Positions 17,565-64,000 of a stretch of 64,000 nt of DNA are shown one piece after another (within the stretch, counting starts at the first letter, position 1; each line of letters opens with the position of its first letter). The notes under the pieces were generated by a model, which was given only the letters and a program-made list of their open reading frames with translations, ran no database searches and was not told where the DNA came from. Location of the stretch: the NCBI GenBank assembly GCA_017533505.1, contig JAFXIB010000109.1, positions 3,752 through 67,751 on the forward strand. The letters run 5' to 3'. Source of the DNA: Clostridia bacterium. GTDB lineage: Bacteria > Bacillota > Clostridia > Christensenellales > DTU072. The position numbers and the translations under genes were made by a program.

Positions 17565-17565
17565 A

Positions 17566-19245: not shown

Positions 19246-19248
19246 CTA

Positions 19249-21957: not shown

Positions 21958-21994
21958 TCCTTTTTTACCTCACAATTTATTTTTTTGTTGTTAA

Positions 21995-23461: not shown

Positions 23462-23462
23462 C

Positions 23463-33800: not shown

Positions 33801-36800
33801 CCCTACTTGCAGATGCTGATGTTGAGCCATAATTGAAGATTGCTTCAACACTTCTACCTGTGTATAGGTTATTCAAGTTGGTGGGACGGTTGGTTGCTGT
33901 ATCCCTGATTTCATAGCTATCAGCAGTTAGGTTGAAGATGATTTCCTTATCATTGTGTTCAAAGATGTTGGATGATGTATCTTCGCCCTCGATGCGGTTT
34001 ACCATGAGCATTACTCTTCTGAAGAAGAAGAAATCGTCGGATGCAAAGTCTTCTGAATACTTGGTTTCATATGGGTTGAGTGCAAGTTCAGCTGTAAATA
34101 TTGTGAACTCTGCTCCTGCAACTGATGCACCAAGAGTATCAACAGCCTTTTGCCAATCTTCGTGGCTTGCATACTTGGATACATAAACTGCCCTGCTCTC
34201 ACGGTTGAGAACGGTTACTGGGATTTCGATTGGTTGAGCAGCTTGTCTGCCATCTTCTGATGGGATATAGATGGTTGCAATAGCTGCCTTGTTGTTATCT
34301 CTGTTGAATTCGCCACCAGCCATGGTCATTTGAGATAGGATTCTCTCATAAGACCAATCAACATCGATTTCAACAGGTGAACTATGATAGTTGAAGTGTG
34401 CAAGTACCTTGCTTGGTAGACCTTCGAATCCTACGAATGGGTCTACTACCAATCCGGTGATGATGCCATCGTCATTAGTTCTTACAACAGAGTTTTGTGA
34501 TAGACCAGCACTTGTTACGCTGATGTCGGTTAGCCATGTTGAATGTAGGTATACCTTGAATTGGAAGATTTGTTCGGTTGCTCCTGAACCAAGGGTTGCC
34601 TTTACATTATATGTGCCACCGGTGAAGTTGTAGGTTAGGCCGGTTGTATCGAAGGTGAGGTCATACTTTTCTTCTTCACCACTTTCGAATAGAACGGTTA
34701 CGCCTTCATTGAATGCCTTGACTTCAACCATTACATCGTCGCCTGTTACAAGGTAGGTGCCATCCTTAATTCTGGTGTATAGGCCACTTTCTTCAATCTT
34801 GTCGGTTAGAGCCTTAACATCTACGCTACCACGATATGCAATGTAGTAAGTATCAAGAGCTTCGTTGTAGTATACCTTTGCGATTTGTCCATTTGCCTTT
34901 GCATATTCAGTTGCTTTGTTCCAACCATTTACTGCGCTTGGCCATACGGTTTCTTCAACAAGGGTTGCTCCTTCGATTGCTTGTGCAAGACTTGTTGCAT
35001 CGCTAATCAAGGTGTTTGCATTGTTCTTACCATTGCCGATTGCAACGATAGTTGCAAGTCCAAGTGCGCTGAAGTCGATTGGCTCATAGATGCTACCTGT
35101 GATGTTGGTATTTGCATCGGTGTACCATGTCTTGATACCAACTGCAACACGGCTTTCTACGATTACCATTACTGGTAGTTCTTCTCTTACATCAAGAGCG
35201 CCTGTTGTAGAGCCAATGATGTTGCCTTCTTCGTCAAGGGTTACGATGCGCTCAACGCCACCAAAGTCAAGAGTTACACCAACTTCAAGGTCAACATCGT
35301 TTGTGGTGGTTACTCTGTAATCCATTGGGATGTCAGGATATCTTACATCAAGAGCCTTGTTGAGTCCCAAGCTGGTTTGAACATCAAGCATTCCGTTGGT
35401 TAGTCCAAGTAGATTGTCAAGTTCAGCTTCGATACCAACAACTGCATATGGGTTGAGTCGTACGGAGTTAGGCAATGTGTAGTTTACGATATGCTCTGCA
35501 TTGATGGTGAAGGTTACCTTCTTTTGGATGTAACCGAATACATCATCACCAATCCAAGCAAGAGCTTCGATTTCGCCACCATTTACACCGTAGCCTTCAA
35601 TGTACTTCCAGTATACATTGTATACATTGGTTTCAAGTGCGCCACCAACTGTGAGTTGAGCGAACTTTGGTAGTTCAAATACATCAAATGCGTTGTATGT
35701 GAAGGTGTTGAATTCTTGAGTTAGAGATTCATCTGAGTAGAATGTTACTTGGATGTCGCCTCTTGGGTTCAAGTTGACATAGTTCATGTTGAGAACTACT
35801 TGGTTGTTTGCCTTGTCGCCAAGTGTTACTGTGCCACAAATACCAGCAGTTGCCTTGTAGAAGTCGAACTTGTCATCGCCAAAGTCGAAGCTTACTGGTA
35901 CTGAACCAACTGTGCCGTCTGCGAATGTTACATCAAGTGCTGTTGGTAGTGCAAACTTGAATGGGTCGCCGATGCTCAAGATATATGCACCATTTGTGCC
36001 TTCGCCGTTGACTGCGTTCTCTTTATATTCTACAGAGTAGCCAGTTTCGGTGGTGTTATTGATGCTTTCGATGACCTTTGCAGGTAGCATTTCTTCGGTG
36101 AGAGTGAAGGTTACTTGTTGTGACCAGATGTGGTTGCCTTCCTTGTAACCAACATTGCCGATTTCAATGTTAATTTGTGGAGCATCTTCTCCTTCGTAGC
36201 TGTAGCTTGGCTTGAAGCCGTTAGCATCAACATAGCTCCAAGAAATGATTTCAAATGCCTTGGTGCCGATTGTGTTGTTTGCTACTTGGTGGATGGATGC
36301 TGTGATACCATCTTGAGCAAGAAGTGCATCGATACCTGCATCTGCATCGTATAGATATACTTCCATTGCTGGAATGTTCAAGCTGGAGATAGTTGACTTG
36401 CTGAGTACAATACGAACATGCTTGATGGTTACATAACCGAATACATCGTCGTGTAGGAGAACATCAGCAAAGTACCAAGCGCCTTCGAAGGATGGAGCGA
36501 TAAATCTTACATTGGTGAGATACTTCTTACCATTGATGATTACTTCATCGCCTTCAACTTCGTCTGCCCAATCGGTAGACTCAATGTCGAAGTATACTTG
36601 GGTTGACAAGGTTTGGTTGCCACTTGCTGTGCTGAACAATACCTTTTGTTCGTTTTCAAGAACGCTTGCGTTATCGTCGATTTCGGTATTTGTTCCGGTA
36701 ATGTAGTAGCTGGAGTATGGATATACTGTGATTTGATCTACACTGCGTGGGCTTCTTCTTTCGACAGTGAAGTCAACTGCAATTTCTTGGACATTGTCAT

Positions 36801-39800
36801 CTCTACCAACCACTGCAGTCCAAGTGTAGGTCCAGTTTCTATTGTCGCTGTAGTTGTAATCAAGCTTTGCTTGATCGTCTGCACGCCAGTAGAAGTCTTT
36901 GCCTTCAACCAATGTGGTGCGATAGAAGATGTTGTCTGCATCTACACCATAACCAACATCGATGGTATTTGGTAGGTTGAATGCGTTGACTGAACCTGAT
37001 GCAAGATAGATTGCTGTTCCAAGATCCAATCCAGCACCGATTGCACTCATGTTGTCAATATGCTTCTTGTTGAGCATTCTTGCTTCTTCAAGAATGGTTA
37101 CATATGCTTCGAAGTCTCTTTCGCTTACGCCACTTACTACGATATACAATGTACCATTTGTTGCTTCGTAAGCCTTGATGCCAGTGTTTGTTCTGTTGTA
37201 TTCAGCGATACCACCAAACTTTGCTACCTTGGTTGCTGGCCATAGAGCTGAACTTACTTCGGTGTTGTTTGCCTTGATAGCATTTACATCAAGATCAGCA
37301 ATGGTTGCTTCTACACCTGCTGGGTAGATAGCCATTACCATGTCATAGCCGATTTCGAAGCTTACGAGTAGAGTTGCATTTTGTCTTGCTTCAAATGGAG
37401 CAATATCACGATCAATAATGGTTTCTTCAAGGTTATGCTCAACAATCTTCTTGGGCAATACATTGATGTAGATGGTGATTACTTGCTTGTTGCCCATTGC
37501 ATCTTCAACGGTGAAGTATACTTCGTAAAGTGGGTGTGAAGTTGCTTCAAGGTCAAGATCTCTGATTGAGCTTGCATCAACACTAACTACATTCCAGTTA
37601 TTGATGGTTGTTGTCTTTGCATTGCCGTTTTCGTCAAGAACAACATTGTTTTCTCTATCAGTTTCATTTACGGTGATATCAATCCACTTGATACCCATGA
37701 TGTTGTTGTAGAGATTGCTGTTCTCAATTGGGTTTACGGTCAATACATTTTCTTGTAGTTGTGCTTCAAAGTTAGAGGTTGTGCCACTGTAGTGGTATAC
37801 TCTTTCGTTATCAGCAAGAACTGCATAGTTTGCAGAGTTGTTTTCGATCAAGCTATTTACGCCCTTGCCTACCAAGTAGTCGCGATATGACTCGAACTCA
37901 TCAAGAGATACACCTGTGTAAACAAGATATACTCTGTCGGTTGAGTTGTCACGATACATTGTCAAGGTGTTCATTGCGCCCATGTATTCTGGGAATGAAC
38001 CATACATTGCTGTTAGATCGGATACGGTAATGTTGTCAACAACTTGAGCAACATTGCTTACATATTGTGAATTGAAGCCAGCGATGGTAGCGTTTTCTCT
38101 GCCAACAGCTACTACCATTGTGCCACCCTTTTGATATACAAGGTTTACACCCATTACGGAGCTAATTCTATTGGTTGAAATAGCTACGCAGTTCTTTACC
38201 TTGATTGGTACTTGGATGGTGACTTCTTCAGAATCCTTACCAAGCATGATGTGATCCCAGTTGTCATAGGTACGCTTGAAGCTATATGTCAATGATGCAT
38301 ATGCGGTTGAACCATCATACTTGACTTCGGTTTCGCTCAAATCCCACTTGAGATCGTTGAATACATATCTCTTGAGGATGTAATCGGTTTCTTGTCCGTA
38401 GATGTTGAACTTTTGATATACACCTTGTTGCATGTAGCGTAGCTTTGCAGTGTAAACCAATGTGCTTGGGAGTAGCTTGATGTACTCATCTGGGTTGTAG
38501 GTGAGAGGATCAATTTCGGGTAGTGAGAGAACGGGCTCGGTGTTGTCCTCATCAATTACCCAGCTGATTTGTTGATTATTTCTTATGCCTTGTTCTTCAA
38601 GCTTCAAGGTAGAATCTGGGTCAACCATGATACCAGCTTCAACTTCAGCTTGGATGTATTGAACTTCACCATTTCTATCTTTAGAATAGGTTTCTTCTGC
38701 GCAGTAGCCAATGATGAAGCCCTTTGTTCCTTCCTTGCTTGGAGCAAAGCTGAGCATTGTGAAGTCCCAATATACTTCTACACCAGCAGATTCGGATGAG
38801 TTGCCGTCTTCGAAGTTAGCATAGTTACGGTTTGGTAGGATATCCTTGATGTCTGTTACAACATATGAACCATCAGAATTCAAGTTGTGACGGATACCTG
38901 CAGTTTCAGATGCCCATGTACCACCATAAGCTGTGAAGTCCAAGATATTATAAGGATCGTGGAATACAATCTTTGTGGGAGGAATCATCATGATTTCCCT
39001 CATACCTGTGCTACCATTTGCCTTTGAGTTGTAGAACTCGGAAGTCATGGTGGAAACAGATCTCATATAGATACCAGTATTGTTGATATCGATTTCTTGG
39101 AATCTGTCGTCCTTTGCACTCATGAGAGTCAATGCTTCTGCAAATGGTCCTACTGTATCATAATTGAGTCCTGTTGGGTTGCCTTGAGCATCTCTGATGA
39201 TTGGGTAACGGCTTACATATGAGAAATTGTAGCCTGAAAGAGCTTCGCTGTATAGTGCACTACCGGTTGCAAGTCCTGCCCAGTTGAAGTTTGGATCGTA
39301 CAAGTTTTCACTTACCATCCAGCTGATGTCACCATACAAGAAGTCTTCGGAGTCAAAGTGTCCGTAAACATCTCTTACATAGGTCTTACCAATCAAGGTC
39401 TTGGTTACTGCACCAGTTACAGGGTCAGCAGTATATTGATAATCGTTGATGATTACATAGCTGTTTACGATGTTGGTGTCTACCCAATCGTTTATCATCT
39501 CTTCAAGAGCAAGATACTTATCGTCGATTGGGGCGCCGGTTTCGGGGCTATAAAGGATGGTGTCAGCACGGAGAACGGTTGCATTTGGCATATAACCATC
39601 TTCTGTTTCAACAACAGAGTAGATTGGGTTGCCATCTTCGTCTGTGCCAGTTTGCTCATACTTGATACCAACTGCACCGAGAGTTGCTTCGGAGTAGCTT
39701 GCACCATTCAAGAACAATGTAATTCTATCAAGGAGTGTATCAACAGCATTGTTCAAGGTTACCTTTGCGTATACGCTCTTATCAATGAAGTCGATGTCAC

Positions 39801-42800
39801 GATAGTAACCGGTCTTGATGTTGCCATCATCATCAAATGTTGCGTCGATGTTTACAAGACCATCATGTTCGCCATCGATTACATTCTTTAGGGTTGAGTA
39901 ACCATATTGTGCGTAGTTGTAGTAGTTGTAACCAACAAGTCTATCGCCCTTTTGTAGCAAGCCTTGGTTGTTGATGAGATCCTTAACATCGGTATCAAGG
40001 TGGTCAAATCTTCCACCATTGAGTTCATGAGTTGGATCAATCAAAATCTTGGTGATGTCGTCATCAAGTCCAACCTCTTCGATTGTTGCAGCAGTACCTT
40101 CAACAACAGGCTCATATACACCTGTTTGCTCATTGTATTCACTATCAAGGAAGCCATATGCAGTGTCTGCTTCCCAAATTGTTGATGCAATGGCACTTTG
40201 TTGTAGTGGGCTTCCTGCCAAGCCTTGTTCTGCAATCATGCTGTATGCAGAGCTGAATGGCAACAAGTGTGATACCAATCTCAATGCTTGGTCGATGATA
40301 TCCATCAAGAAGTTGATTTCGTATAGTACCATTTGAACGATATTGAAGATACCATTCAAGTCGCCACCAAGAAGTGAGGATATGACGCCAGCAAGCAATG
40401 ATCCTACAAGACGGCCACCGGCTGTGTACAATGTGTTGGTGTACTCTGCTTGGTTTTCATATACATAGTCAAACATTCTGATATCAAGATCTTCGTTGTA
40501 CTCACCAATGAAGTTGAGCTTCTTGATATCCTTTTCTTCGGTGCCAGCTGGAACTGCACAAAGGTCAGCCATGTTGTAGCGTTGAGTCTTGGAGATTGGG
40601 CTATAACCAGAGTATCCAAGGAGTAGGTTATGTACCATATCGAAGACACCATTGATCATGTCAGAAGCAATCCAAACTTCAATGTAAGTGATGGAGTCGG
40701 AAGTATCTTCTCTACCCTCTTCAAATCCTGCAACATAGTTGGTCCATGGAACGAAGATAGGCTTGCCCATTGCATCAAGGTATTGTGATGTGGTGTCAAC
40801 ACCGGTTACGCTACCAAGTAGTGAGCCGAGTACATTACCTGCAAGACCGGATACGATAGAGCCACCAATGCCACCAATTGCATTGCTGATTGCGTTGGTG
40901 ATTGCGCTGGAAGCTTGACCTTTACCAATACTGATGAGCGCGTTGATGGTTTGGTCGCCAAGACTTGTTAGGTATGAGTATTGAGTTAGTGGGATGCCGT
41001 CTTGAGTGTAACCTGCGTCTTCAAGAGATTGATCGTTCTTGTCTACGCTGGATGCATCAGAGACATCGGCACCAAGACGAAGTCTTAATCCTTGTAGTAG
41101 AGCTGATGAACTCAAGTCTTTAGTCATCCACTCTGGAACAGGTTTAGGATCAAGGAAGATTTCGCCAAAGTTGTAGTAGTTTGCAGTTTCAGTCAAAGTG
41201 AAGCTACCAACATCGAAGTTTACATAGTCGGTTGCTCTTACCTTCAAGGTGTAATTTCTGTGGAGTGCAAGGTTGGGGATATCAAATGAACCGTTGCTTC
41301 TCAAGTTGTTAACATTCTTAACATTGATATCACTTTGACTGTTGTTGTTTTGAGCAGCTGCAAGGAAGTTTCTTGCATTGTTTGCCCAGTACCAGTCACC
41401 TTGCTCGGAACCAGTATTGTCAGGCTTCTTGTAGTGAACGGTATTTTGGTTGAGACCATTCCAATCGTCAGCCATTCTAATGGTTCTGCCATCAAGTTCA
41501 AGCCAGATTTCAACACCACTGAGAACAGGAGTTGTAACTGCCTTCTGCATTGCAACAACTACTCTGTATACAGGAGTGGTGATACCTTGCTCAAGTATCT
41601 TTTGTGAAATAAATCCGCGTACTTCAACAATAGCTCTCTTATCGTAGCTTACTGCATGATAGTACATATTGGGGATATTCTCGGTGATAGTGTAGTTTGC
41701 TTGAGTATCTGTCTTTAGAGTATTTTCAACAAGATTCTTGATACCAGTTGTTACTTTGTCTGCACTATCAAAGTCATATACATGGTAGAGAATGCCATTT
41801 TGTTCATATGATGAGTATACTCTGCCAGCTTGAGCTTCAAGAGCATCGTCAAATGTATCGTTGAAGATGCTGTCGATTTGGTTTGCCTTGCCGTCATCGT
41901 AAGTGTTGCCACCCTTTTGATCCTTTGCAAGCAATGTAAATACTTCAGTTGCTGTACCAGAGTCAAGCAAGGTTTCGTCCTTCAATGTGATGAGTATAGC
42001 ACTCATAGTACCACTTGTAGGCTCGTGATATACGGTGGTCTTGAAGTGCATTGTATATGGATTTTCGGCAGTCCTTGAGTTTGGAGTACCATCAGCATTA
42101 AGGTTAAGACCAAGAGTTTGGTTGATAACTTGACCATTTGTCTTTGTCAACCTAATAGTATGGTTGAATCCTTCAAGTGACTCAATAACAACTTGGATAG
42201 AACCACTATCTGGTGTTACACCAAGTTCTTGCCATGCACCATTTCTGTAAATTTCAACCTTTGCACCAACCATTGGACGAGTTGCAGTATTGTTCTCGAT
42301 GTATTCTTCTTCGGTGGTTACCTTGAAGTGTACATTCTTCCAAGTGGTTACGGAGTATGAGTTCAAAGTGAAGTTTGCTTCGGTGGAAGGTCTTTCGTTT
42401 GAACGAAGGATTGTTACATAAGGTTGAGTTTCGCCTCTTCTTGGTAGGTCATTATATCCAGTCTTTGTTATCTTGATTGGGTAAGTGTTAGGACGGATAT
42501 TGATGAATGAGTAGTAACCATCCTTATCGGTGGTGGTTGTATATCTACCATTATCAAGGGTTACAGTTGCACCTTCAACTGGTACATAAGCATTAGCATC
42601 AGCATCGAAGGTGTTAACATTACCATAGATTGAGCCATAGTTGGTGTCTTCTGCAACTGGCTTCAAGGATGCAACAAGGGTTGGTAGGAACTCTGGCAAA
42701 TAGAGGTTTACAAGAGCGATACCACCAGCACCACCACCAAGCAAGTCGTCGATGATTGCACCAAGGCGTAGTGGTGAGCCATAACCGGTTGCATCACCAA

Positions 42801-45800
42801 TCATATCGGCTATCCAGGTCGAGACATACGGTCCCGCAAGATCCCAGACCAGTCCAACTACCGTTCCTGCAATACCATTGATTGCACCAACGATGGTTTC
42901 CAGCAACCAGCCTGCGACCGTATTAATCAATCCACTGATATCCAGTACCAAGATGGATGCAAGACTCAAGTGCAATACATTGTTGCGTATGAATGCTGTG
43001 AGGGATTGTGGCTCCCAATCGTCTTCGTTGGAGAGTGAGCCTTGTACATTTGCTACTTGGGTAAGCTGGTTGATTGGAATTTCAACCTTGTTGGTTACAG
43101 TCTTGTTGAGTGCAAGTCTAATTCTTCTATAAGCATTGTCAAAGAAGATAGGTTCATATGCCTTGAGCAAGCCACCTACATCGATTGAGAAGCTACCAAT
43201 GTTGATAACCCAGTCAAATGCTCCGCCCTTTGATACGAATGCATGGTCGTATGGAGTCAAGCCATTTTCGTCAGCAAATGCTCTTACAACAGGGCTGAAG
43301 TAGGTAGGACCTGTGGTCAAGCTTACACCAAAGCCGATACCGAAGTCGAAGAATACACCCTTTGCCATACCATAGCCAAGGTTTCTCAAGAAGAAGTAAT
43401 CGTTACGCTTTTCAATATAAATTGTAAAGTCGCTCATTTGGATTACATCAAGGATACCTTGAGCAAGGGTTAGTACGCTGATGTTTGCAGCAAGGTTGCC
43501 AGCTGAATCCATACCAACGGTCAAGCCTTCGATACCACCATATTGACTTTCGTCGCCGATAGTTGTGAGCTTGTAGAGTTCGGCAGTCGAACCAAGTGCG
43601 ATTGCAAAGTTACCTTCGTGTACAGCAAGGTTGATGTAGTTGCCCTTTTGGTCAAGCTTTACACGGAGATTGAGGTTGTTTAGACCTTGATATAGGTTGA
43701 TTGATAGTCTAAGGTCTGTGAGGTTTGGTAGTACCATACTATCGCCAAGGAGAGTTTGTACTATTGCCATATTGGGGTTGATGATTAGTTCTTCGTTGGA
43801 GAGCAAAATCTTGAGGAGTGGTGCATCGGTTGATGTTACAAGGTCCATGATTCCGTTTTGAGCCTTGTCATTCAAGCTGATTGCGCCATCTTGAGCACTT
43901 GCAGTAGAGAGTGCGTTGTTTGCATTTACTGCTGCGTTTTCTTTGTCTTCAACGGTGAGAATGCCAGAGAGCATTTCGTTCAAGTTGATACCTTCGTCTC
44001 CAAGGAAGGAGCCAAGGAAGCTGTTGAGAATGCCAAGAACATCAACACCATTTAGTGCTGCTTGGAACAAGCCAAGTCCACTGAGGTTTACATAAGCTGT
44101 ATTGTTCTTACCAAGGAAGTATACACCAATGAGTTCTTCGCCGGTAAGGTTGATTGTGAGTGCCAATGTAGTGTTGGTCATATCTGCAAGGTCTGCAAAT
44201 ACTGTTAGACCAAGTGAGAATACCAATACTGTATTTTGAACATCAAAGTTGATGGTGTCAGCACTCATGCCAAGGAGATTTTGTAGTAGCTCTTGCATTG
44301 CAACAAGTTGTGGAGCTTTTTCGGTATCTCTGGTACGAACGCGTGCTTCAAGCTCAAGGTTGAGTGCAACCTTGCTGATTATGCCGATATCTTCGTATAC
44401 GATACCATCTTCTGCGCTACCTTCAACTTGCTCACGAGCAGTGATAGATGAGCCCTTGTTTTCATCGGTCCACATTTCGAACTTGCCTTGTCTACCATTG
44501 AAGCCGATACGGAATGCCTTTTCGTATGGGGTATCATCGGTCAAGCGCAAGCATAGTCCGTATACTCCGTCTTCGTTGGAGTAACCGACTTGAATATTGC
44601 GGAACATTGGGAGTAAGAGCTCTGCTCCACCCATAATACCTGCGATAGCATCATTCTTTGATGCGTTTGAAAGTAGTGAGTATACAAGAGCACCAGTAAT
44701 TGCAAGTGATGTTTCGTCTGCACCAAAGGTTAGGAGCAAGAGTCTTTCTGTCCAGCCATAATCCTTTAGGTATACTCTGTCGATATGTTGGTCTTCAATC
44801 TTATCAACGCTTTCAAGAGCATTGTCACCTTCTTGAGTTGCATTTTGAGCATTGAGAGCTGATGTATCAGATGCTGTGCTTGCATTGTCTCCACCAGCAA
44901 GACCACCAACAAGGTTCTTTAGTACTGCGCCAAGTTGGAGGCCTTCAAGTTTAACACTTGGGAAGCCAAGACCACTCAAATCAACATAAGCTGTGCTGTT
45001 TTCGTAAATACCATTTTCGTCTTGCTCGTAATTACCTACATAGGTGATAAGGATCATAGTCTTATCATTGTAGGTCATTTCGAGTTGCAATCTCAAAGGA
45101 GTGATGTCACCAAAGTCGATGAAGAGTCTTAAGTGTAGTCCTATTGCAATTGCAATGTCGTCAATGGGTTGTAGTGCAAGGTTGATTTGGCTAATCATGC
45201 TTGCGATGTCGCCACCAATCAAGCCACCTATTGTACCAAGAAGCTCACTCATATCAAAGAGTCCACCAACGGTGTCGTCAATGTTGATTTCAAGATTTAC
45301 TTCTGCTTCCATCTTATAATCGGAAAGTGGACGGAAGTTTTCTGCAAAGTATGCTTGGAAGTCATCTCTCATCATTCCATCAAGAGGAGTTTCTTCAAAG
45401 ATGTTGGTGTTTTCACCAAGACCGATGTCAAGGTTGTGGATGGACAACGAAACATTGTACATGCTCTTTGAGCTTGATACAACCATGAGTACCTTGTAGC
45501 ACTCTACCATACCTGTTCCAAGGTCAACAACTGGAGCAACCTTTAGTGATGCGTTGAGCATTGTACCATAGTGATATAGTGATATAACGCCATCTGCGTT
45601 TTCGCTCCATACATAGGTCTTGAGTTGCAAGAACTCGGAAATTGCATCTACTACCTTTTGAGCATTTGCCTTTGATGCTTGTAGATACTCATCACTACCA
45701 GGATTCAATGCAGGGTCGATTGCAAAGTAGATAGATGGGTCGTAGATGAAGTAGAATACATTACGGGTTCCGGAGTCTTCAAGAGCAAAGTCTTTGTCTT

Positions 45801-48800
45801 CGCTGATAACTTGTTGTCTTAAATAGGTGTTTTCTGCACGAAGTGCGATGTCGCCGTTATCGGTAGGAATGGTTGCGCCAATCAAGAAGCCAGCTTCGTA
45901 AGTTTCACGAATCTTTTCAAGAGCAGCTTGTTCGCTAACAACGCTAACGAGCTTTTCGCCAAGTGAAGAAATATTTATGCCTGCGATGTTGAGTGCAGGA
46001 GCATCAGCTGTGCCTACTACTACAGCAAGGAGAACATCCCCTTCTGATACCTTAATAGATACGCGTGTGTGTGCGCTATCATTAGTAAGTAGATATACGC
46101 CAGTAGCATCGTTGTATGCAACGCCATATCCACCACGGTTTGTCAAGCTATCTACAAGAGCATCCTTGACAGCATTTGCACGGTTGTTGATTTCTTCAGC
46201 TGTGTAATCAACATTCTTTTCAAGTGCAAAGATGTCTTCTGTGCTGTATACAAGATACTCAACATTTAGACCTGCGCCAACAGATGTGATGCCATATGCT
46301 TCGGAATCAAGTGCTGTGCCAAGATATCCGCGTGAAGCATATACGCTATATGAGTTTGCTTCAAAGGTAGCTTCAACACCATTCAAGAATGCTGCTACGC
46401 CACCCATTGTGTTCATAAGAACATCCACACTTTCGCTTGATGCGATTGTGGTGCTGATGTCGGCAATTTCTGTTTCAGATGCATCAATTGGTTCTTGATA
46501 GTCAAGACCTAAATTGAGTGACAAGGAGTTGCCAGTATTATCAAGAACAACTGCAAGGTTACCAATCTTTTCATCGAATGGGAAGCCAAATAGTTGGTCA
46601 AGTATGGTTTGGATTGCAGTTTGTGCTACTACGATAGAAATTGCACCCTTTGTGAATTGGATACTATCAAGTAGTCCAATGTACCACATGGTTTCTTCTT
46701 CTTTTTCTTCTTCCTCGTAGTCGTAGATGTTTTCGTCATCTTCTTCAGCTGCATTTTGTACACCATTTTGAGGTGCGTTTTCGCCTGCGTTTGCACCCGA
46801 ATTGTCGCCAGTAATATCTTCGTCAGCAAGCATACCATATAGGCTTTCAATCAAGTCGTCAAGGGTTTTAACGATGCCACTTGTTGCATTGCCAAGTGTA
46901 CCACCAAGACTATCAAGGACAGCCTTCAAGTTGAGGTTGAGGAATTGCTCAAATACGGCGCTGTTTAGGGTGATACCTGTTATGCCAAGTTCTTCAAATC
47001 CAGCCATGTTCAAGTATAGGCCAAGACCGTTTTCGTTGTAGTCGCTTTCGCTTTGGTTCAATGAGCCTACTACATAGAGAGCAAAGTACTCTTCAAGAAC
47101 ATCGCTTTCGCCTTCAGCATAAGTGCCGTCTTCTTTGAGTTTTACAAGTTGAATTACTGCGTCAATACCCCACTTATCAAGAGCTGTGAGCTTAACATCA
47201 GCCTTGATGCGTAGAGTTGCGTCGCCAATGATATCGTTGAGTGCTTGAATGTAGAATGCAGCACCAACTACATTACCATTTTCGTCAGCTTCGTTTTGGA
47301 ATAGTGAGCTCCAGTTCAAGATGTACTCACGAATGTCTGCGCCTACGGTAATATCAATACCAAGGTTTACTCTCCACTCAACATCAGATGTTGAGAAGCA
47401 TCCTTCATAGAACTTAACTTGTTCTTCGTCATTACGCATGAAGTCAAGGTACTCATTGAAGGAGTCGGTGTTGATGAGAGCAACGGAGTCGTGTAGCAAG
47501 CTTAATGTTGCTGCATAACCAGCACTCATATACTTGTTGCCATCTTCGGTTTCGATTTCTGTACTATTCTTTGTGATATTTATTTGTAGGCTTACACCAC
47601 CTGTACCTTCTTCGAAGAACAAGCCAAGTGAAGCGTGGTCAAGGACTAGGCTTGCGATACCATTGATGGTGTCTTCAGTTACTTCTACATCGCTGTTAGC
47701 AGAGCCAAGAAGTCCTGTCAAGATATCAACAAGAGCATCAGCAACACCTACCAACAATTCCTTGGTAATCATCAAACCGAAGCCTTCGGAGTTCAAGTAA
47801 ATGATAGGCTTCAAGAAGTTACCGATAGCATAGTCGCTTTCTTCATACATATCGATGATAGGATTGCGTGCTGGGCCATCTGGAACGGTGCTTGGTGCAT
47901 TTTGAACATTAGATTCATTGCCACCCGTTGAACCACCACCGATACCTTGGTCTTCATCTTCCATATCGAAGATGCCTGTCATAACATCACGGATAAGACC
48001 GGTAATATCGAACTCGTCGAGCTTGATGTCAAGGTTGGTGTCAAATAGTTCTACTCCAAGGTAAGCTACGTTGTCTACCATGTAAACTTGGAGTAGCTTT
48101 TGAGTATCGTAAATTTCCCCTGTTGTGTTATCGATAATGGTGTAACGGATAACAAGGTCGAGGATAAGTGCTGAATTAAATACTTCTGGGTCGGTGGAAA
48201 GCATTCTCTTAAGGTCAAGACCAGCCTTGAGGTTGATTTCCATGAATAGTGTTTCGTCACCACCAGCAAGAACGATAGAAGTATCAAGGTCTTCTGGTAG
48301 CTTGATGTTGAGCATACCAAATACCAAGTCGAGTAGGTCAACAAGTGATACATCACCATCTTCAAAGTCAAGTTGGATGCTTATGTTGGTACCGATTTGG
48401 AATGCCATTTCGTCATACTTGGTGTATGAACTGATTTCTTCTTGGCTGATAACAGGTTCCAATGTGGATTGAATACCATGTGGGGTATGAATCTTGGTTT
48501 CGTTCTTGATGTCAGCAGCAATTTGTTCTCCCAAAATTGCAATACCAAGCTTGATACCTGCATTGGAGTTATCTTCTTGCTTTTCTGGTACGATTTCGTA
48601 TTCGCCAGTTGCTTCGTTATATTCCCAAACATCACGGTAGTCCTTACCGGTATCAAGGTTGATGTCAACATGATACTCGCTGTTTGGTGTCATTCCCACG
48701 CCTGCACTTGGCTCAATTACGCCCTTCAAGTAGTCTTCAAGTGGTATATTGAGTCCTACCAAGCCAAGAACAACATTAATCATTTCAAATGTTACTGTTA

Positions 48801-51800
48801 GGAGTAAACCATCATCTTGTGATAGCAAAATCTTTACGATACCAACAAGTTGCTCTTCGTCACTTTCGTTGTTTAGACCAAGAACTTGTCCCCATGTTGG
48901 ATATGTCTTAGCAAAGAGTTGCTCGGTTTCTGGGGTAACAGCGTTTTGTGCGCCCTCATCTGGGTTGGTAACTTCGCCTTCTGGTGATTCTTCTTCAGTC
49001 TTACCACCATTAATCAAGAAGTTAATCATACCACCAAGCTCCCAGATTTCAATCTTGCCAAGACCTAATGTGGATAGGTCAAGATATAGGTCGCCGTTAT
49101 AATAGGTAATAACAATCTTAAATCTCTCTTGATCCTTGAGTGAATAGATTGCTACCTTGAGTTGGAGGTTGTCAAGTAGTCCTTGCAAGCCACCTTTGAT
49201 GAATACCTTTGCTTCAATATCGATACGGATAACATCACCAAAGCCATTTTCATCATCGTTCAAGAAACCAAGCATGATGAGGTTTGGTAGAGCTGTTGCA
49301 AGTGGGCTATCCTTGCTGAACAAGGTCTCAAATGCTGTGTTTGCAGCCATTTCTCCAAGAGGTCCATTTTCATCAAGAATGGTCTTATATAGGTTACCAA
49401 GGTCTACTACACCATCGTTAACCTTAAGTCTAATTTCAAAGCCTGCTTCTACTTCAATGGTGTTAACATTGTGAGCTGGCAAATAGTTTGCAGTTTGTGG
49501 GAGTAGTAGTTGGTCTGATGGATAACGCTCAAAGTTTACACGGTGATCACCGATAGCTATGCCAAGGTCAAGAACCTTTGCTGTATCGGAGATATCATCT
49601 ACGGTAGATGTTGCGCTGAGTTCCAAATCAATGCCAAGGTTGAAGGTGTTTGCCTTTGGAGCAATGGAGATTTGGAGTAGAACATCGCTGAATACCTTGA
49701 GATTTGCAAACTCAAACATACCAAGAATGCTGTTTACAGCAGTCTCGGTTACATATAGTGCCAAACCGTGTGTTGCTACACTACGGATTACCATTTGTGT
49801 TGCAAGGTCAATGTAGATTGGGGTTGATACGCCACTGCCAGTTGCATTTTGTACCCCACTTGCATTTTGTACGCCACCTTCTACTGTACCTTCGCCTTCA
49901 GTACCTTCGGTTTCTTCCTTCTTTTCGCCATCACCCATTAGGTCAAAGTCTTTTTCGCCAAGGAGAGTTTCCAAAACATCTGCTACGCTGAACTTTGGTC
50001 CGTTCAAGTAAGTAAGGTCTACATATAGGAATGAGTTGTGTAGGTTTACTTGAACAAGCTTATAGTTGTGGTTGCCGTCAATTCTTCTAATGGTAATTTG
50101 AGCTTCAACACCACGGTAGTTGAGAAGTGGGAAGTTTACAAGGATTTCAACTTCAACACTCATTTGATGCTCGCCTACAACTTCAAGGAGAAGTGAAAGT
50201 GTAGTATCAAGCATGCTTCCAAGAAGTGATGCAAGAAGTGATGTGATAGGTTCTTTGTTGAGGTCGTAACCAGAGTAAATCTTGTCGGTTAGTACGCCCT
50301 TGATACCATCGCCACTGAGAGCTTCGGAGCCAAGGTCAAGATATAGGTTGAGTTCCAAACCGATAACTGGGTCGGATTGGTCAAATTCTACATATTCTTG
50401 AGCAATATATTCTGTTACAACATTGCCCTCTTCGTCCAAAGTTTCGCCATCAAGATATGCGTATCTTGGTGCTTCAATATTGTGGTCAACATAGTGGCTT
50501 TCAATTCTGCCATCGCTATAATAGATGTCTTCCATCCATTGATAGCTGAGCGCAGCAACAAAGGTGTTGGAAATGCTTAAGCCTATACCAATCTTTCCAC
50601 CCTTCTTGTACTCGTGTACATTAGGATCGGTGGATAGGTCTACCCTTTCGTCACCACTGAACTCATAACCTTGGAATGTGATATCAAGTGCAAGCAAGGT
50701 TTCTGGGCCAGCCAAGCCAAGTTCAATTTCCAATTCGCCAATAGGCTCTACAAAACTTGAGAAGTCCATTGCTTCGCCACCGATAGCACGAAGAACACCA
50801 AATAGAGCTGTTGTGGTAAGGCTGATGATGAAGCCTTCTGGGCTGAATAGAATGTTGATGTATCCTGGGATGGCGGTTGCACCAGCAGGTAGATTAAACA
50901 ATGAATATGGGTCAAAGCCATTTACTGATTCATAACCAGCAAATCCAAGATTTTGAGCATTAACAGGCTTGCCACCATCGGGGTTCTTGTCGTTTGGAGT
51001 GTGTGGAACACCGAATGCAGGCAAGATTTCTTGTGTTAGGAAGTTCCAAGCATTGTCAATCTTAACAGCTTGTAGGTTGAAGCACTCTGCGTTGATGTAG
51101 ATAGCAGTATCAACATAGTAGACGGAAAGAACTTCTTTGAACTTTTCTTCGCCGTCATAATTTATAACCTTGTTTCTATCACGCAATGTGATTGCAAAGT
51201 TGGTCTTATATAGAGTGTTGAGCTCCAAGATTTCGTCAAAGTTGATGTTGCCGATGATTTCCAATCTGTAGTGAGTGCTTACAGTTGAAAGTAGTTGGAT
51301 GATTGGAGCAAGACCAAGTCCACCGATGGTATCCATGATGCCACCTGAACCAAGCATGCCAAGAGCACCAGCAACGGTTTCGTCAAGATTGAACTTGGCG
51401 TTGTTGTCACCATCGATATCAAAGTCCACATAAAGCTCTACATAAACTTCGGAAAGGTCGGTTGCTTCTGAATAAGCTTCGTCATCAAATGCAACGGGTG
51501 CAAGAGATGGGTTTTCTTCGGAGCTGTCCTTGAAGTCTACATCAAGACCCATTAGTGCAAAGCCTACCGTGTAGTTTGCAAGCTCTAATGTCAAGCCAAG
51601 GAGAGCATTTTCGTCTTCTGTAACAACGCCATTTTCATCGGGGTCGTTGGTCCAGAAGTCGTTCATATATGCAAGGTTTGCTATCAAGCCAAGTTGTAGT
51701 GCGAAGTGATCGTTTACGATAGCTGCAACAAGGCTACCAAGGTCGTCTACACCATCAATACCAAGGTCAAGACCACCCAAAATAGCAAAGAGTACAGAAC

Positions 51801-54800
51801 CCATTACATCAATGATGAATCCTGTGCCGTTACCAAATACAAGTCTTACATAAGGTAGGAGTTCTTCAGAATCAAACTTGCTGTCAATAGCATATTTAGC
51901 AAGATATTCTTCATCACTCATCTTTCCAGAAGCGCGCAACTCTGATGTGCTTGCGTTTTGAACAGAGGTGTCGCCTTCGTATATTTCGTCGTCGTCTTCT
52001 TCTTCCTTATCAAAGTAATCTTTAAGACCATCTTGACCGATTAGTCTGAAGATGTGGTCAAGGAACATTTCAACCTTGATTCTTTGTATGCCAAGCATAC
52101 GGCCATCAATGTATGCTGTACCGTCTGCATAATATAAGGATATATAGTCGATGATTGTTTCAGTATATGTTACTGTTTCGCCCTTGAGTGCGCTTTGCTC
52201 AACATCAATGTATTCGCGTTCGACCTCAACACCAATACGGAGCATAAGTTCTGCTCTAACAAGCAACCAGTTGATGTCACCAGTTGCAACAACCTTCATA
52301 AGGTCATGCATGTTAATATTGAGTGAAAGCTCAAGTAATAGCTCTTTGTCTTCTAAACCAGAGTTCTCAATGATAGCACCAAAATCTACTTCTGTGAAGA
52401 ATGCTTCAAGGAGTTCTTTGAAATCAATTGCAGTTTCGGGAGTGGTGTCCTCTGCTCTGAGCTTGGTCTTACCACTAAATGAAATGTTGATGTTTTGTTC
52501 AGCCATTTCTGCTGGGTTGAACCAGTAGTAATGGTTGTTAGGATTGAGAAGGCCTCCTTGCATGGTGCCGTATTCGTCAATAGTACCGGTGTAGTAAGTG
52601 TCGTCTGGGCTTACGGATACATTTATAGAACCGATTTCAAGTTGAACTTCAAGGAGTTCTGCAAGGCTAATGTTTGCAAGCAAGAATGCACTTCTATAGC
52701 CACTTTCTGCCTTTTCATCTGGAATCTTGGCTGCGCCAAGCTCGATGAGTAGGCTTGGCTCGTGAATTCCAAAGAATTTAGATAGGTCTATTGCACCATA
52801 TTTACTTATGTCTATTGGCAAACCTGTTTCCATGCTATGTAGCAAGCCATAGTAGAGATACTCATAGTTTGCTTGTGTAATTTCACCACTTGCAAGCATG
52901 TCATCAAGCTCTGCCTTACGAATAGCTGTTAGACCTTTCTTCAAATTGTTATATTGATCTTCTGCATATACGCCGTCAAGCGCACTTATTGATGTATATA
53001 GGGTTTCAACAGGAACCAAATTTGCATTCAATGTATTAAGTGCTTCTTGGCTGATGTTGGGGAAGAATTGTGCGTGCTTTTCGCCTATCATTTCCTTGTA
53101 TTGAGCAAGGAATGCTGTGAATAGTGCATGCATGTCTTCAATAGACATATCCATGCTTAAGCTGTCAATTAAATTTACCCATACTGTGTCGATAGCGTTG
53201 TAATCTTCAATTGAAAGATTTCCTTGGCCTTCGTTATATTGGGCACTCAAAGAGCTTCTGTAGGTTTCTATCAATCCTTGGATAGCATAATAGTACTCTT
53301 GGGCTGAATATACACCAGTATTTACATAGGTTGAAATCTTGCTTTCATCAATCTCGATTTGGAATTCTTGGTCTGTTGAAAGCAAACTATTGGCAAGTGA
53401 GTAAATTGCAGCAGCAGGTGCAACGATAGCAACAGGTGCTCCGTTAGGAATGCCAAATGTATCTGGATCTGCAGTAATTGCCAAAATGATGGATGTTGCT
53501 GTCATGATGGAAGGAGCTACCTTACCATCAGCATTTCTTGGGAGAACCAAGCCGTTGTTTGTGGAGTTGAGAGCAACAGGATCGATAGTTTCAGTCTTGT
53601 TGGTCATAACCTCGGCAAAGTTTTCCATATATTCGGTAAATGCGTTGAAGTTATTGATGCGAATAATGTCATTAATCTCAAGAACATCACCAAATACTTT
53701 TGTAAGGTCGGCGAATACATTGAGGTCTATTTCGCCTGTGACAGGATCTTCTACGCCCATCAAGCTTACCCACATGATGTCACCACGGTTTTCAAGCTTT
53801 GGTGATGTGGAGAAGAATACTGATGCCTTCAAGTTAGCAATGTTGGAAATATCAAGGATAACTTCAATATCGTAATAGAGTGAGCCACCAAATGTTGCTG
53901 TGCCGTTTGCAACATTGCCTACAACTTCTACGATAAGTGCAAAGTTGAGGAGTGCTTGGTAGTCAACATTTGTTCTGACTTCTTCGTGATAAATGGCCTT
54001 GAGTTCATCATCACTATAACCTGCATATTCGGGCTTCAACGATGTTTCTCTAATCCATTGCAACATCTCTTTTTCAGCGTTTTCGCCGAGAATTTTCTTA
54101 AGTTCTTCTAAAATGTGAGTAAGAACCGTCAAATTACCCGTTGCGCCCGTTTCTGGATCAACAACACCTTCAGGGGAAGTTATTTCAAATTTAGCAACGC
54201 CACCAAGGCTAACACCTATGGTATCAAGAGATTCGATTTCGTCGTATTTAGCCTTTTCCTCTTCATCAAGCTCAACCATCTTGTCCATGAGGATAACAAG
54301 CTTGTTGATAGATGCGCTAAGAGTTACGAAGTTCTTGTCGTTTGGAGTTGCAGTACCCTCTTCGTCTTCACCATCCATACCTATATCGCGTAGTTTGAGT
54401 GCAAGGAAGATTTCAAGTGGGCTTGCGTTGATTCCAACTTCAACACCAAGGTCAAGGCTCTTGAGATATTCTTCGATATTCAATCCAAGCATGTTGAGTA
54501 CGCCAACTACAAATGACTTTGCAATGGTTACACTCAAACCATAATCTGCAAGAGCAAGATTGATATAGTACTTGATTGTGTCAACTTCAACGGGGTTAAC
54601 TTCTGCGCCTTCGTTGTTAGCATAACCAATTTCAACGCCTTCATTTGATGCTATTGCACCAAGTAGACCAGCAATGAGCTCGTTTGCTTGTGGAATATGG
54701 ATATACTCAAGATTTGCAATAAATGTTTCAATGTGAGCATATACATCGCCTTCGATGTAGTAAATTTCCATTACTGGACGACGAGCGCGATTACCATTTT

Positions 54801-57800
54801 CGTCATAGTAATCTTCGTCGCTTGGGTCAGATGATGCATATGTAGAAAGGATAATTGCAGCACCTGTTTGTTGTAGGTTTGCAAAGTCAAATCCATTGTT
54901 AATGATGCCAATAACTTCTTGGAGATTGAGGTTTGCGTTGATATCAAAGAACAATGATTCGTCAACAAGACCCAAGAACTCAATGAGCATGCTGAGCTCA
55001 ACATCGCCAAGTAGTCCACTGAGTGCAGGAGATAGGTCGATAGTGTTTCTATCGCTGCCTTCAACAACTTGGCTGTTGATGTTTGCGTATCCACCAAGTT
55101 CAAGGTATACATTTGTGGGCAAACCACTATCGGATAGGAAGAATTCTTCATTTTCTGGTAGAGAAACCAAGAATTCAGCGCCACTCAATTCTTCGCCGTC
55201 AAGAGCAATCTTGAATTGGCTCAAGCCAAGGCTCAAGTTGAAGATTTCGATACCAGTTTCAATTTCGAGATATGCGCCCTTGTCTCCTAGACCAAGCTCA
55301 AGAGATGTTTCTTGTATTTCAATTGGTAGTTCGCTTGAAAGGAATAGTCCAAGTAAACCTGCGATAGCATCCTTTGTAAGGTTGATTGCTACCTTATCGT
55401 AATCAAGAATAACTTGGAGTGCAACGGCTGCAGGATTTGATGCGTCAGCAAATTCAGCTACTCTATTGAGATGTAATAGGTTTGCAGGAGCTTCGTCCTT
55501 GTCTGCTTCAGCAGAGCCAGTTAGCGTGCCAATATCATCGATGAGTGATGCAACATCGTTGATACCGATGTTTGGAATGCCAAAGAAGCTTAAATCAAGG
55601 TATAGGTTGCCATCAAGCAAGTAAATGCCAAGAATGTGTCCTGCATCTCCTGGAACCTTTCTATCAAACAGACGGATTGCAAGCTCACTTCCACCCAAAA
55701 TTGTTGGGATAGGATCAGCTGCTTCGGAGCCGTCAAGCTTGATGATGCCACCAAGAGAGAGTTTTGCAATGATTTCAAAGCCAAGTTCGATGTTGAGTCT
55801 TGATGTATCAATTACCAAACCAAGACCTTCAATTAGGCCAGAAAGCATTTCGTTTAGATATGCATTGGTGTACTCTTGTACACCTTGCATAACTTGGTTG
55901 CCGTCCTTGTCAAGAACAGGAATCTTGTTTCCTTCGCCGTCTACAACATAGTTGCCTTCGTCGTCAACTTCATATACTGGAGTTTCGTCAACAGTAAAGT
56001 CAAAGTGGCCTTCAAGCCTCAAACCAACAGTTAGGCTATCAAGGAATTCAGGAATAGATACGAATGATTGGATATAATCGTCTTCTTCAATGTCCTTGTA
56101 GAGGTTTTCCTTGCCAGCTCTCAATGCGATATCCTTCAGGATATCGATTTCAAGAGAAATAGCTTCGATTGTTTGATCGCCATCGTCAAGGAGTGATAGG
56201 TAAATGCGTAGATATCCGTTTTCTGGGAATATTGTACTATTGCCATTTTCGTCTTTGCCAAAGTCAAAGTTGATAGCTTTGATTTGTACAAATGCATTTA
56301 CATTTGGCATTGTGATAGTTTCGGGGTTACCAAACTCATCAACTGGAGCAAGGAGCATGGTGAGCAAGCTGGAAAGTACATTTGCTGCTACATAAACAGT
56401 CAAAGTGCCCTTGATTCTATCAATTTCAACTTCGCTGAGTGCCATGCCTACGATTTGCATGATATCAAGACCGCCGCCCTCTCCTTCTGGAGTTTCGCCT
56501 TCGGTTGTATCGCCAGTAGGCTCGCCGTCATTGAGTGCGTTAAAGAGCATTGCGCCAACTTCTTCGCCACCGATAAGGATACCACTTGCAAGGTACTCAT
56601 TAACTACCAAATATTGGTATAGGCCAAGCTTTGCTTGGTTCAAGAAGTTAGGATCGGATGTATCAATAGTAAGTGCGTTTTGTGCTCCACTATCTTCGCT
56701 TGTAAGCAGTCCTGCAATGATTGATGCAATATCAAGACCTGCAAGTGTATCACGCAAGCCTAAACCTTCGTATTTGAGTCTTGGGAGCTTGCCAAGAGAA
56801 GCAAATCCCATGTTCTTGAGTGGCTCAAGGTCAATGTACAATGTATCTTCGATACCAGAGTAAATAACACGAATGAATGGGTCGTTATTTGCACGATTGA
56901 AGATGGTAACCTTGAGTTCGGTTTGAGCCATATCAAGAAGGTCAATATTTCCTTGAATGGTGTAAGCAATGGTTGTGCTACCATCGTACTCTACGCCGAT
57001 AGAAAGGAGTAGATTGTCAACAAAAGTACCAATTAGACCACTTAAATCAAGGCCCTTGTCTGTTGTTTCGGATGCGCCAAGCGTTACATCACCTTGCAAA
57101 ATAACATTGTAGTTACGGTTTGCAGCGATAAAGTCGCCATTATCAGTCTTATAGATGGATAGGTTGGTGTACTTTGCGCGTTCTTCGGCAGTATCTACCA
57201 TTGAGTAGTTTTCCCAATCGGGCTCTCTCATGTATGTTAGGTAGTCAACAGCAAGACCAAGACGGAAGGTGTCGGATACATCAATAACCAAGCCAAGAGT
57301 GTCAAGAACATTCTTTTGGTTGAAGCTGAGTCTTACATTGAGCTCTTCGCCAAGGTTACCTTTTAGTGGCGTAATCATGCCAACGATTTGTGATAGGTCC
57401 TCGCTGTTTAGGTCAAGAGCGATATTCCAATCGTTTGGTATGGGCTTTCCATAAGCATCGGTCTTAACGGTACCATCTTCGTTATATAGATATTCTTCGA
57501 TACCAGGAAGCTCGAGATTGTTGAGAACAACCTTTATGATTGCCATGACATCGATGCTTGGTGCAGGTTCGCCACCCTCTTCGCCTTCATTAAACAAGCC
57601 ACCAAATAGTGCATTAGACGCTTGTTCTTCGGGAACAGCAGGCTTTACATAGTTGGGGTCAAGATATGGCAAAATGCCACCTAATACGCCACCAAGGAGA
57701 TTGTTGATATCAAAGCCTTGTAGAACTACATTTGGTAGCAATTGTCCACTATATGTTTCGAGGTCCTCAAAGTTGATGTAAAGGTTCATTCCTGTTAGGA

Positions 57801-63096: not shown

Positions 63097-64000
63097 TTAG
63101 CTCCTAATAAACTCAATATATTTTTTGTCGCCAGAGCCATAGAGTGATATTTCTACGCCTTCTGGAGCAGCATTGTTGATTACAAGATAGATAGCTTCGA
63201 TACTACCCTTTGATGTAAGATACTCTGTATCAATGATAATTTCCGACCAAATAGTGCCAGCTTCAGCTTGCAATTGACTCAAGTATGTGCCTACATAGTA
63301 AACAAGTTCTTCGTCAGAATTGATTACTGAATCGTATGCTTCACTTGGGTCAATGGTTATGTTGTAAGCAAAGCTTAAATCATCTCTTGAAAGCTCTGGA
63401 TATACGCCATATGTGTCGCGCGTGTCGGAAGCAGAAACACCGATTGCGAAGAACTCTTTTGTCAACATTTCGAGTTTTTGGGCATCCGTTCCTGAACCAA
63501 TGGTTGCTGATTCAGAGCCCCAAGTTGCATCTACTACATACCACTTGCCATCAAGGAATATGGTGTTCCATGCGTGTCCAATGCCTGATGCTTCGCCAAC
63601 AATCTTGGTGCTTACGATACCTTCCATATTAGCAAGAAGGTTGTATGCCTTTGCAATACCATCACATACTGCAAGCTTGTCGATGAATACACCTTCAAGA
63701 TAGAAGCAGTTGTATGCTGTGGTATCTTGGTATCCATCTTGTCCTGCAACGGCAACAATCTTATAGTCATAGGTTACATTGATGCTCAACCACTCGTAAA
63801 TTGCAAGAGCTTTTTCTTGTTGAGTCATCTTGTCGGAGATGATGGTTTGTAGCACTTCGCGTGCCTTGAGATATACAACTTCTGCGATGGTTGGCTCTTC
63901 GCCCTCTGCCCTATCTGGGAACAATGGCTTGTAGCCCATTGCTACTGCAAGATATAGCTCGTTGGTAGTAGTTACTACCATGGTGCGTGTCAAACTATCT
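63097..64000 (-). CDS. Transglutaminase-core (Cys-His-Asp) domain protein, 5' end probably outside the window
   Basis: AVCDGIAKAYNLLANMEGI ... GHAWNTIFLDGKWYVVDATWG is the papain-like transglutaminase core. The frame remains open to the window edge upstream of the listed TTG at 63993. Confidence 0.75.
   Translation of the reverse strand, partial: DSLTRTMVVTTTNELYLAVAMGYKPLFPDRAEGEEPTIAEVVYLKAREVLQTIISDKMTQQEKALAIYEWLSINVTYDYKIVAVAGQDGYQDTTAYNCFYLEGVFIDKLAVCDGIAKAYNLLANMEGIVSTKIVGEASGIGHAWNTIFLDGKWYVVDATWGSESATIGSGTDAQKLEMLTKEFFAIGVSASDTRDTYGVYPELSRDDLSFAYNITIDPSEAYDSVINSDEELVYYVGTYLSQLQAEAGTIWSEIIIDTEYLTSKGSIEAIYLVINNAAPEGVEISLYGSGDKKYIEFIRS

Follow-up and report, generated by a model that had tools for sequence, protein, structure and literature searches.

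A recurring Asn-Ala motif in the acidic linkers of a giant surface lipoprotein of gut Christensenellales is probably a site read by another protein

What holds a few residues constant within protein linkers that are otherwise hypervariable? The question is raised by a stretch of 64,000 nucleotides from contig JAFXIB010000109.1 of a Clostridia bacterium (hereafter, the window), which carries on its minus strand a single open reading frame (ORF) encoding a giant protein of 9,482 amino acids (aa) with a lipoprotein signal (30829..59277). An earlier note, made by reading the window alone, had listed nine occurrences of a QNA-type motif in the acidic linkers between the modules of this protein and took the motif for a recognition site. 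All nine were found where that note had placed them, and they share the one ORF, as do all other linker motif sites described here. The recurrence is real; the unit that is conserved, however, is x-N-A and not Q-N-A, and this wider definition adds two sites, S0 and S2. Our analysis suggests that another protein, perhaps a protease, probably reads the motif. We regard it as likely that this is a linear motif maintained by selection, and the questions of what reads it and to what end are taken up below with correspondingly less confidence.

The giant protein begins with MNRNLAHKLMLLLIVVALVVALFAC, followed by SPR, a signal peptide that ends in the lipobox of bacterial lipoproteins (L-x-[AG]-C). 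The signal is kept by all orthologues, in which the lipobox takes the form (F/A/I/V)AC followed by Ser. Self-comparison divided residues 1-5400 into about 14 divergent, beta-rich tandem modules of 300-400 residues each, which are only 20-27% identical to one another. Pooling of the paralogous modules into one profile failed, since it picked up no more than the C-terminal third of the other modules, and that weakly. The module end is marked by the motif (L/A)Y(L/V/I)(D/N)L…LGL, after which come a short helix and an acidic stretch rich in Gly, Glu, Asp and Thr, with a net charge of -3 to -17. A Pfam search of the whole protein gave no match in the first 4,900 aa; a CarboxypepD_reg-like domain lies at about residue 5,560, and the C-terminal half contains more beta-rich regions. 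Of the 21 genomes of the same genus (the window's own genome not counted), 18 carry the gene, as do three more genera within the family; 16 other families of the order lack it. When 1.84 billion representative proteins were searched with a profile, only 33 relatives were retrieved. The carrier is a Candidatus Stercoripulliclostridium-like gut bacterium of the Christensenellales, and the giant protein is a surface lipoprotein. The host genomes are small (1.5-2 Mb), and the giant gene takes about 2% of the genome. We found nothing functional in the literature on this genus or on giant proteins of the Christensenellales.

Along the protein, the sites (all on the minus strand) begin with S0 (ASNA, 57610..57621, residues 553-556), which is absent from the earlier note, is ASNA in most orthologues and has its Asn identical in 12 of 13. 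It is followed by S1 (AQNA, 56674..56685, residues 865-868) and by S2 (55477..55488, residues 1264-1267), the other site not listed before, where the variant PANL has Leu in place of Ala and the Asn is identical in 12 of the 13 aligned orthologues. The Asn is identical in 15 of 16 orthologues at each of S3 (VQNA, 51952..51963, residues 2439-2442), S4 (AQNL, 50947..50958, residues 2774-2777; PSNA or PQNA in orthologues) and S10 (AQNG, 43852..43863, residues 5139-5142; PQNA in orthologues). S5 is a tandem, VQNASGVQNA (49843..49872, residues 3136-3145), composed of S5a (49861-49872) and S5b (49843-49854). The S5a Asn is invariant in 17 of 17 sequences, and the double motif with its six-residue spacing is kept throughout the genus (PSNASGPSNA, PQNASGAQNA and similar), other genera having a single copy. 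The least conserved site is S6 (AQNA, 48940..48951, residues 3443-3446), with the Asn identical in 6 of 14 orthologues and QNE in the closest relative. S7 (VQNA, 47896..47907, residues 3791-3794) and S9 (AQNA, 44839..44850, residues 4810-4813) are single sites, and between them S8a and S8b together read PQNGVQNA (46750..46773, residues 4169-4176) within a 50-residue linker of net charge -17.

Chance arising from composition is ruled out as the source of this recurrence. QNA occurs ten times in the giant protein, eight times in linkers of the first 5,200 residues and otherwise at residues 7299 and 9414, and no other tripeptide is as strongly enriched in the N-terminal 5,560 aa. The expectation of the earlier note that QNA should exceed a composition-matched shuffle was borne out, since 5,000 residue shuffles gave a mean of 1.30 copies and a maximum of 7. 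Linkers were then delimited blind to the motif: a segment counted as one if it was 13 residues or longer and had no more than one hydrophobic residue per 13. NA was found 18 times in the 426 linker residues of the giant protein, compared with 4.9 ± 1.9 when each linker was shuffled on its own, and its density was 4.2 per 100 aa inside linkers and 0.45 outside, in keeping with the linker preference that had been proposed. The excess over within-linker shuffles, which does not depend on any alignment and is what excludes composition as the cause, reached significance in 16 of 17 sequences. When the set was thinned to nine lineages, NA ranked at the top of all 400 dipeptides in linkers (133 observed, 43.2 expected, z = 15.8), with QN next, and the logo of 232 linker instances reads [P 6x, V 5x, A 2x]-[Q 7.8x, S 2.7x]-N-A-[P 3.6x, S 2.1x]. 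The pattern [PAV][SQ]NA is present in nine copies in the giant protein and at most once in each of the 1,121 remaining ORFs of the window's genome, which rules out a general linker feature of the secreted proteins of this genome; the linkers of the neighbouring gene products contain no [PAV][SQ]NA. The motif appears to be private to the giant-protein family, and essentially so within the window's genome.

To define the conserved unit, 16 orthologous N-terminal regions from four genera of one Christensenellales family, 28-89% identical, were aligned with the window protein (17 sequences). The Asn is identical in 15-16 of the 16 orthologues at S3, S4, S5a and S10, compared with 30-50% identity in the flanking columns, and N89 is invariant in alignment A1. 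Persistence of the motif in orthologous linkers, on which the earlier note had staked its reading, was thus found for Asn-Ala; the Gln is often replaced by Ser, Ala, Lys, Glu, Val or Leu. The family-wide motif is [P/A/V]-[S/Q]-N-A-[P/S/G/E] with Asn-Ala as its constant core, and QNA is the form of a local lineage, so that searches restricted to Q-N-A would miss most family members. The same holds at greater distance: homologues of less than 50% identity, which are lipoproteins of 7,100-7,900 aa, keep xNA[E/P] 30-60 residues past many module ends. Across orthologues the Asn columns use both AAC and AAT and the Ala columns all four GCN codons, and the codons also vary between the sites of the window. 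Since synonymous codons vary at the motif columns, the constraint lies on the protein and not on the DNA, and Asn-Ala appears to be under purifying selection at the amino-acid level within hypervariable loops. A cause at the DNA level, such as a repeated oligonucleotide or a slippery site, is ruled out by the same codon differences.

The residues that flank Asn-Ala differ between lineages in a concerted manner, as all sites of one protein share one flavour. This is [V/A]QNA[G/S] in the window's clade, PSNA[S/P] in another clade, P[S/Q]NAP in a third and PSNAE in a fourth, and in another genus it is PQNA[E/D]. If the sites had co-evolved with a single reader, their flanks would be expected to change in concert like this, at a dozen places in linkers that are otherwise unrelated. 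Gene conversion offers no ready alternative, because the DNA shared between sites amounts to about 12 nucleotides at most.

The motif lies at a median of 54 residues past the Y-x-D anchor of the module end (10-90% range 42-71), and the distance from it to the next hydrophobic segment is variable (about 9 to 33 residues, 10-90% range). At S0 and S1 it stands before the acidic stretch and not after it. The variable spacing and the order at these two sites speak against a fixed structural cap. AlphaFold2 was used to model a pair of modules and a single module, with 17 and 21 orthologues, and the confidence (predicted local distance difference test, pLDDT) was only 51 and 53. In both models the modules are meanders of long antiparallel strands with a few helices, and the motif stretches are unstructured (pLDDT about 25-30). 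Foldseek found no match in the PDB at E <= 0.001 for either model. Selection acting within loops predicted to be disordered, the variable spacing and the concerted change of flanks together support the proposal of the earlier note that the motif is a recognition site rather than a structural element.

Which protein would read such sites, and with what consequence? We propose that the motif, placed once or twice in each of about a dozen disordered acidic loops between the beta-rich modules of the N-terminal 5,200 residues, would be read at all sites by one trans-acting protein, whose specificity would have drifted together with the sites. Among possible readers the most likely would be an endopeptidase that acts after the giant protein has reached the cell surface and nicks the exposed linkers at Asn-Ala or beside it, so that the giant precursor would become a set of module-sized pieces that remain associated. 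The best candidate enzyme would be a surface-anchored M6 zinc metalloprotease, co-inherited with the giant protein and usually encoded directly downstream of it. In the window this is a protein of 2,095 aa (24184..30471, minus strand) with an M6 metalloprotease domain, RCC1 repeats, a Big_3 domain and a C-terminal dockerin. The M6 assignment of the earlier note was confirmed (M6, or immune inhibitor A, model TIGR03296, 125.2 bits against a cut-off of 110.8, E = 4e-36), and residue 335 marks a HETAH zinc site (HExxH). The four genera that carry the giant gene are also those that carry the M6 gene, and elsewhere in the order there is one weak partial match only; two genomes that are 91% complete lack both genes alike. 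At least six genomes of two genera (G004, G005, G006, G015, G016 and G024) have it immediately downstream of the giant gene. The reported autocleavage sites of the M6 enzyme PrtV have small P1' residues, namely Ala, Gly or Val (F/A, E/G, K/V; PMC2613228), with which a cut between Asn and Ala would be compatible and no more. By context, proteolytic nicking with the M6 protein as leading candidate is the best-supported mechanism, and we give it a probability of roughly 0.35. A more specific picture, of a surface polyprotein or scaffold in which the dozen or so Asn-Ala motifs are cut or bound by a co-evolving, dockerin-anchored M6 protease to yield a non-covalent chain of roughly 14 modules or a surface enzyme array, is rather doubtful.

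Several observations weigh against proteolytic nicking, and the main one is topology. Only the N-terminal module is lipid-anchored, by a single anchor, and cutting any linker would therefore free the C-terminal part of 4,000 residues unless the modules associate. The gene is never split at the linkers in any relative, the open frames being 7,000-9,700 aa long. In a clade of three genomes (G001, G014 and G019) the M6 gene is on another contig than the giant gene and the motif is still present; in G001 and G014 the contig of the giant gene extends well past the 3′ end of the gene and carries no M6 gene. The co-distribution of the two genes is largely phylogenetic. The predicted disorder of the linkers is weak evidence, because both models are of low confidence. 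Sites turn over as well, in a manner typical of short linear motifs: S8a is lineage-specific, and the turnover at S6 counts against nicking. The function itself we infer entirely from context.

The invariance of the Asn, the single residue that never gives way, raises the alternative that the chain is left uncut and is instead modified or cross-linked at or near this residue, for example by a non-canonical glycosylation that shields the linkers or by Lys-Asn isopeptides that staple the linkers to modules or to other molecules. We consider this unlikely. The sites are predicted to be exposed and disordered, linkers of clostridial surface proteins are often glycosylated, and in Gram-positive pilins and the HK97 capsid autocatalytic Lys-Asn isopeptides form with Asn as the acyl donor; the known isopeptides, however, arise in hydrophobic folded cores and not in acidic loops. 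The glycosylation site that the earlier note had considered does not stand as an N-x-S/T sequon, though some other modification of the Asn may occur: among 132 non-redundant instances, Ser or Thr is at +2 in only 28 (21%), and Pro, which blocks glycosylation of the oligosaccharyltransferase type, is there in 28 as well (21%). The conserved neighbourhood includes no glycosyltransferase. It does include, syntenic upstream of the giant gene in many relatives, a gene for a lipoprotein with a transglutaminase fold, present in the window as the C-terminal 300 aa of about 1,015 aa (63097..64000, continuing past the window end, minus strand), in whose product the Transglut_core domain was found. The gene and paralogues of it are also found in families without the giant protein, and classical transglutaminases use Gln, which is not conserved here. 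The last point bears most heavily on the suggestion of the earlier note that this very protein uses the Gln of QNA as acyl donor in cross-linking. The domain and the synteny speak for that suggestion; at -1, however, Ser is found in 59 and Gln in 56 of 232 instances, Ala, Glu, Asp, Val and Lys also occur there, and whole clades use PSNA. With no reactive Gln conserved across orthologues the suggestion is contradicted, and we regard it as very improbable.

Two further explanations were weighed. Asn-Ala may act in cis with no reader in trans, by latching onto its own or the next module, or by being needed for module export or folding. Such a role would fit the fairly regular spacing after the Y-x-D anchor and the position of several sites 5-10 residues from strongly conserved module-start blocks (QNAPV-DLVTSTD at S10, TPIxIDLG at S5), and the alignments are shallow, so that low AlphaFold confidence cannot prove disorder. 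The spread of distances to the next hydrophobic segment, the inverted order of motif and acidic stretch at S0 and S1 and the tandem duplicates at S5 and S8 speak against it, and a concerted change of flanks is unexpected if each site packs on a different module as divergent as these are. We judge an intrinsic role improbable. Alternatively, the giant protein may be a scaffold whose roughly 12 motifs recruit copies of a partner domain; the adjacent M6/dockerin protein would offer one in its RCC1-type beta-propeller. Short linear motifs within disordered regions are common ligands of beta-propellers, RCC1 repeats are present in the downstream protein, which co-occurs with the giant gene and usually adjoins it, and the lineage flavours fit co-evolution with a binder. 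Against this, the partner already owns an anchoring device in its dockerin, and a core of four residues is small for stable docking; docking seems to us quite unlikely.

If the motif is cut, as we propose, two other classes of peptidase come to mind besides the M6 protein. The earlier note had held that the motif does not fit the A-x-A (-3,-1) rule of type I signal peptidase (SPase I), and this holds for more reasons than it gave. Read as an SPase I site, the motif has Ala at -1 throughout, and in many lineages it looks like a c-region, having Ser at -3 and Pro at -4. In contrast, other clades have Gln, Lys, Glu or Arg at -3 (Gln, Lys or Glu in the window's clade), Pro is the commonest residue after the motif Ala (enriched 3.6-fold, 21% of sites) although an SPase I site should not have Pro at +1, and upstream of the motif there is an acidic stretch of 15-50 residues and no hydrophobic h-region. 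Each genome has one housekeeping SPase I, encoded in the downstream operon, and G007 has it too despite lacking the giant gene. The Pro after Ala, the lack of an h-region and the occurrence of the single enzyme in a genome without the giant gene make SPase I an unlikely reader, and a dedicated signal peptidase paralogue is ruled out by there being a single SPase I per genome. A legumain-type (C13) asparaginyl endopeptidase would suit the conserved Asn, but was rejected since PF01650 is absent from seven genomes of the family, six of which are at least 90% complete.

Among known systems, the processing of the P97/P102 adhesins of Mycoplasma hyopneumoniae is the nearest documented analogue and offers a precedent for nicking. 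These are cut at S/T-X-F↓X-D/E in disordered regions by a protease that was not identified there, and the fragments stay on the cell (PMC3322551). Both cases concern large surface proteins of low-G+C Bacillota-related bacteria with a short motif that recurs in predicted disorder. The giant protein differs in its motif, x-N-A, so that the disordered context is common to both and the P97/P102-type processing motif is not; it is also about ten times larger and made of tandem beta-rich modules, has no sequence relationship to the adhesins, and its cleavage is only proposed here. The giant protein also resembles the fibrillar adhesins and giant repetitive surface proteins known from Gram-positive bacteria: it is anchored to the membrane at its N-terminus (here through a lipobox), continues for thousands of residues as tandem beta-rich modules and has a C-terminal region that looks adhesin-like, where prealbumin-like domains are found together with other beta-rich ones. 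Unlike theirs, its modules have no Pfam family or PDB fold match and are highly divergent, and they are separated by motif-bearing, acidic, disordered loops instead of being tightly abutted identical repeats. The presence of the same short motif in each inter-module linker is also seen in polyproteins and repeat proteins, such as those cut at viral 3C-type Q↓G/S/A sites or the fungal Kex2-processed proteins. The giant protein, however, contains no dedicated protease domain, its processing is a proposal, and the P1-Gln logic of 3C-like enzymes does not apply because the motif Gln is not conserved. Giant modular surface proteins with functional linkers are already known as a general kind, and the module family and its motif are undescribed. 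If the proposal is correct, Asn-Ala would be the mark of a previously undescribed recognition system, specific to this dipeptide and confined to one family of uncultured gut Christensenellales. Cleavage sites would make the protein a rare bacterial surface polyprotein with a dedicated protease of new Asn-Ala specificity, and modification or docking sites would add a new short linear motif of bacterial extracellular proteins. A motif found at about a dozen places provides a concrete handle on the maturation, decoration and assembly of a megaprotein.

The neighbourhood of the giant gene gives some further information. The block from the M6 gene to the SPase I gene (17007-30471) is syntenic even in G001, G014 and G019, and because it keeps its synteny where the giant gene sits elsewhere, it is the giant gene and not the operon that seems to have moved. 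A SpoIIE-like gene (14725-16944), which scores below the equivalog cut-off, adjoins this operon and suggests that the uncultured host sporulates or descends from spore-formers. On the other side, the transglutaminase-core protein matches the NCBIfam Mycoplasma model 'MAG6410 family transglutaminase-related lipoprotein' below the curated cut-off, and a paralogue of about 850-900 aa is present in every genome of the family.

Within the giant protein, the module end LYLDLSxLGLGK at residues 3398-3408 (about 49054-49086) has its Tyr, its Asp, a Gly and its Lys invariant across 17 orthologues in alignment A1, and most paralogous modules have a Lys in a hydrophobic-K-hydrophobic context 8-12 residues past the Y-x-D anchor. 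About 1,170 residues (51970-55470, residues about 1270-2435) are devoid of x-N-A linker motifs, and part of this region, in contrast to the beta-rich modules, has a propensity for helix and many Tyr, Gln and Ala residues; a region of a different kind therefore seems to interrupt the array of modules. In codon usage, Asn is encoded by AAC 422 times and by AAT 228 times in the giant gene, and among its 692 Ala codons GCG (8) and GCC (25) are rare. Gln is encoded by CAA 258 times and by CAG only twice, yet CAG is common at the same motif columns in several orthologues.

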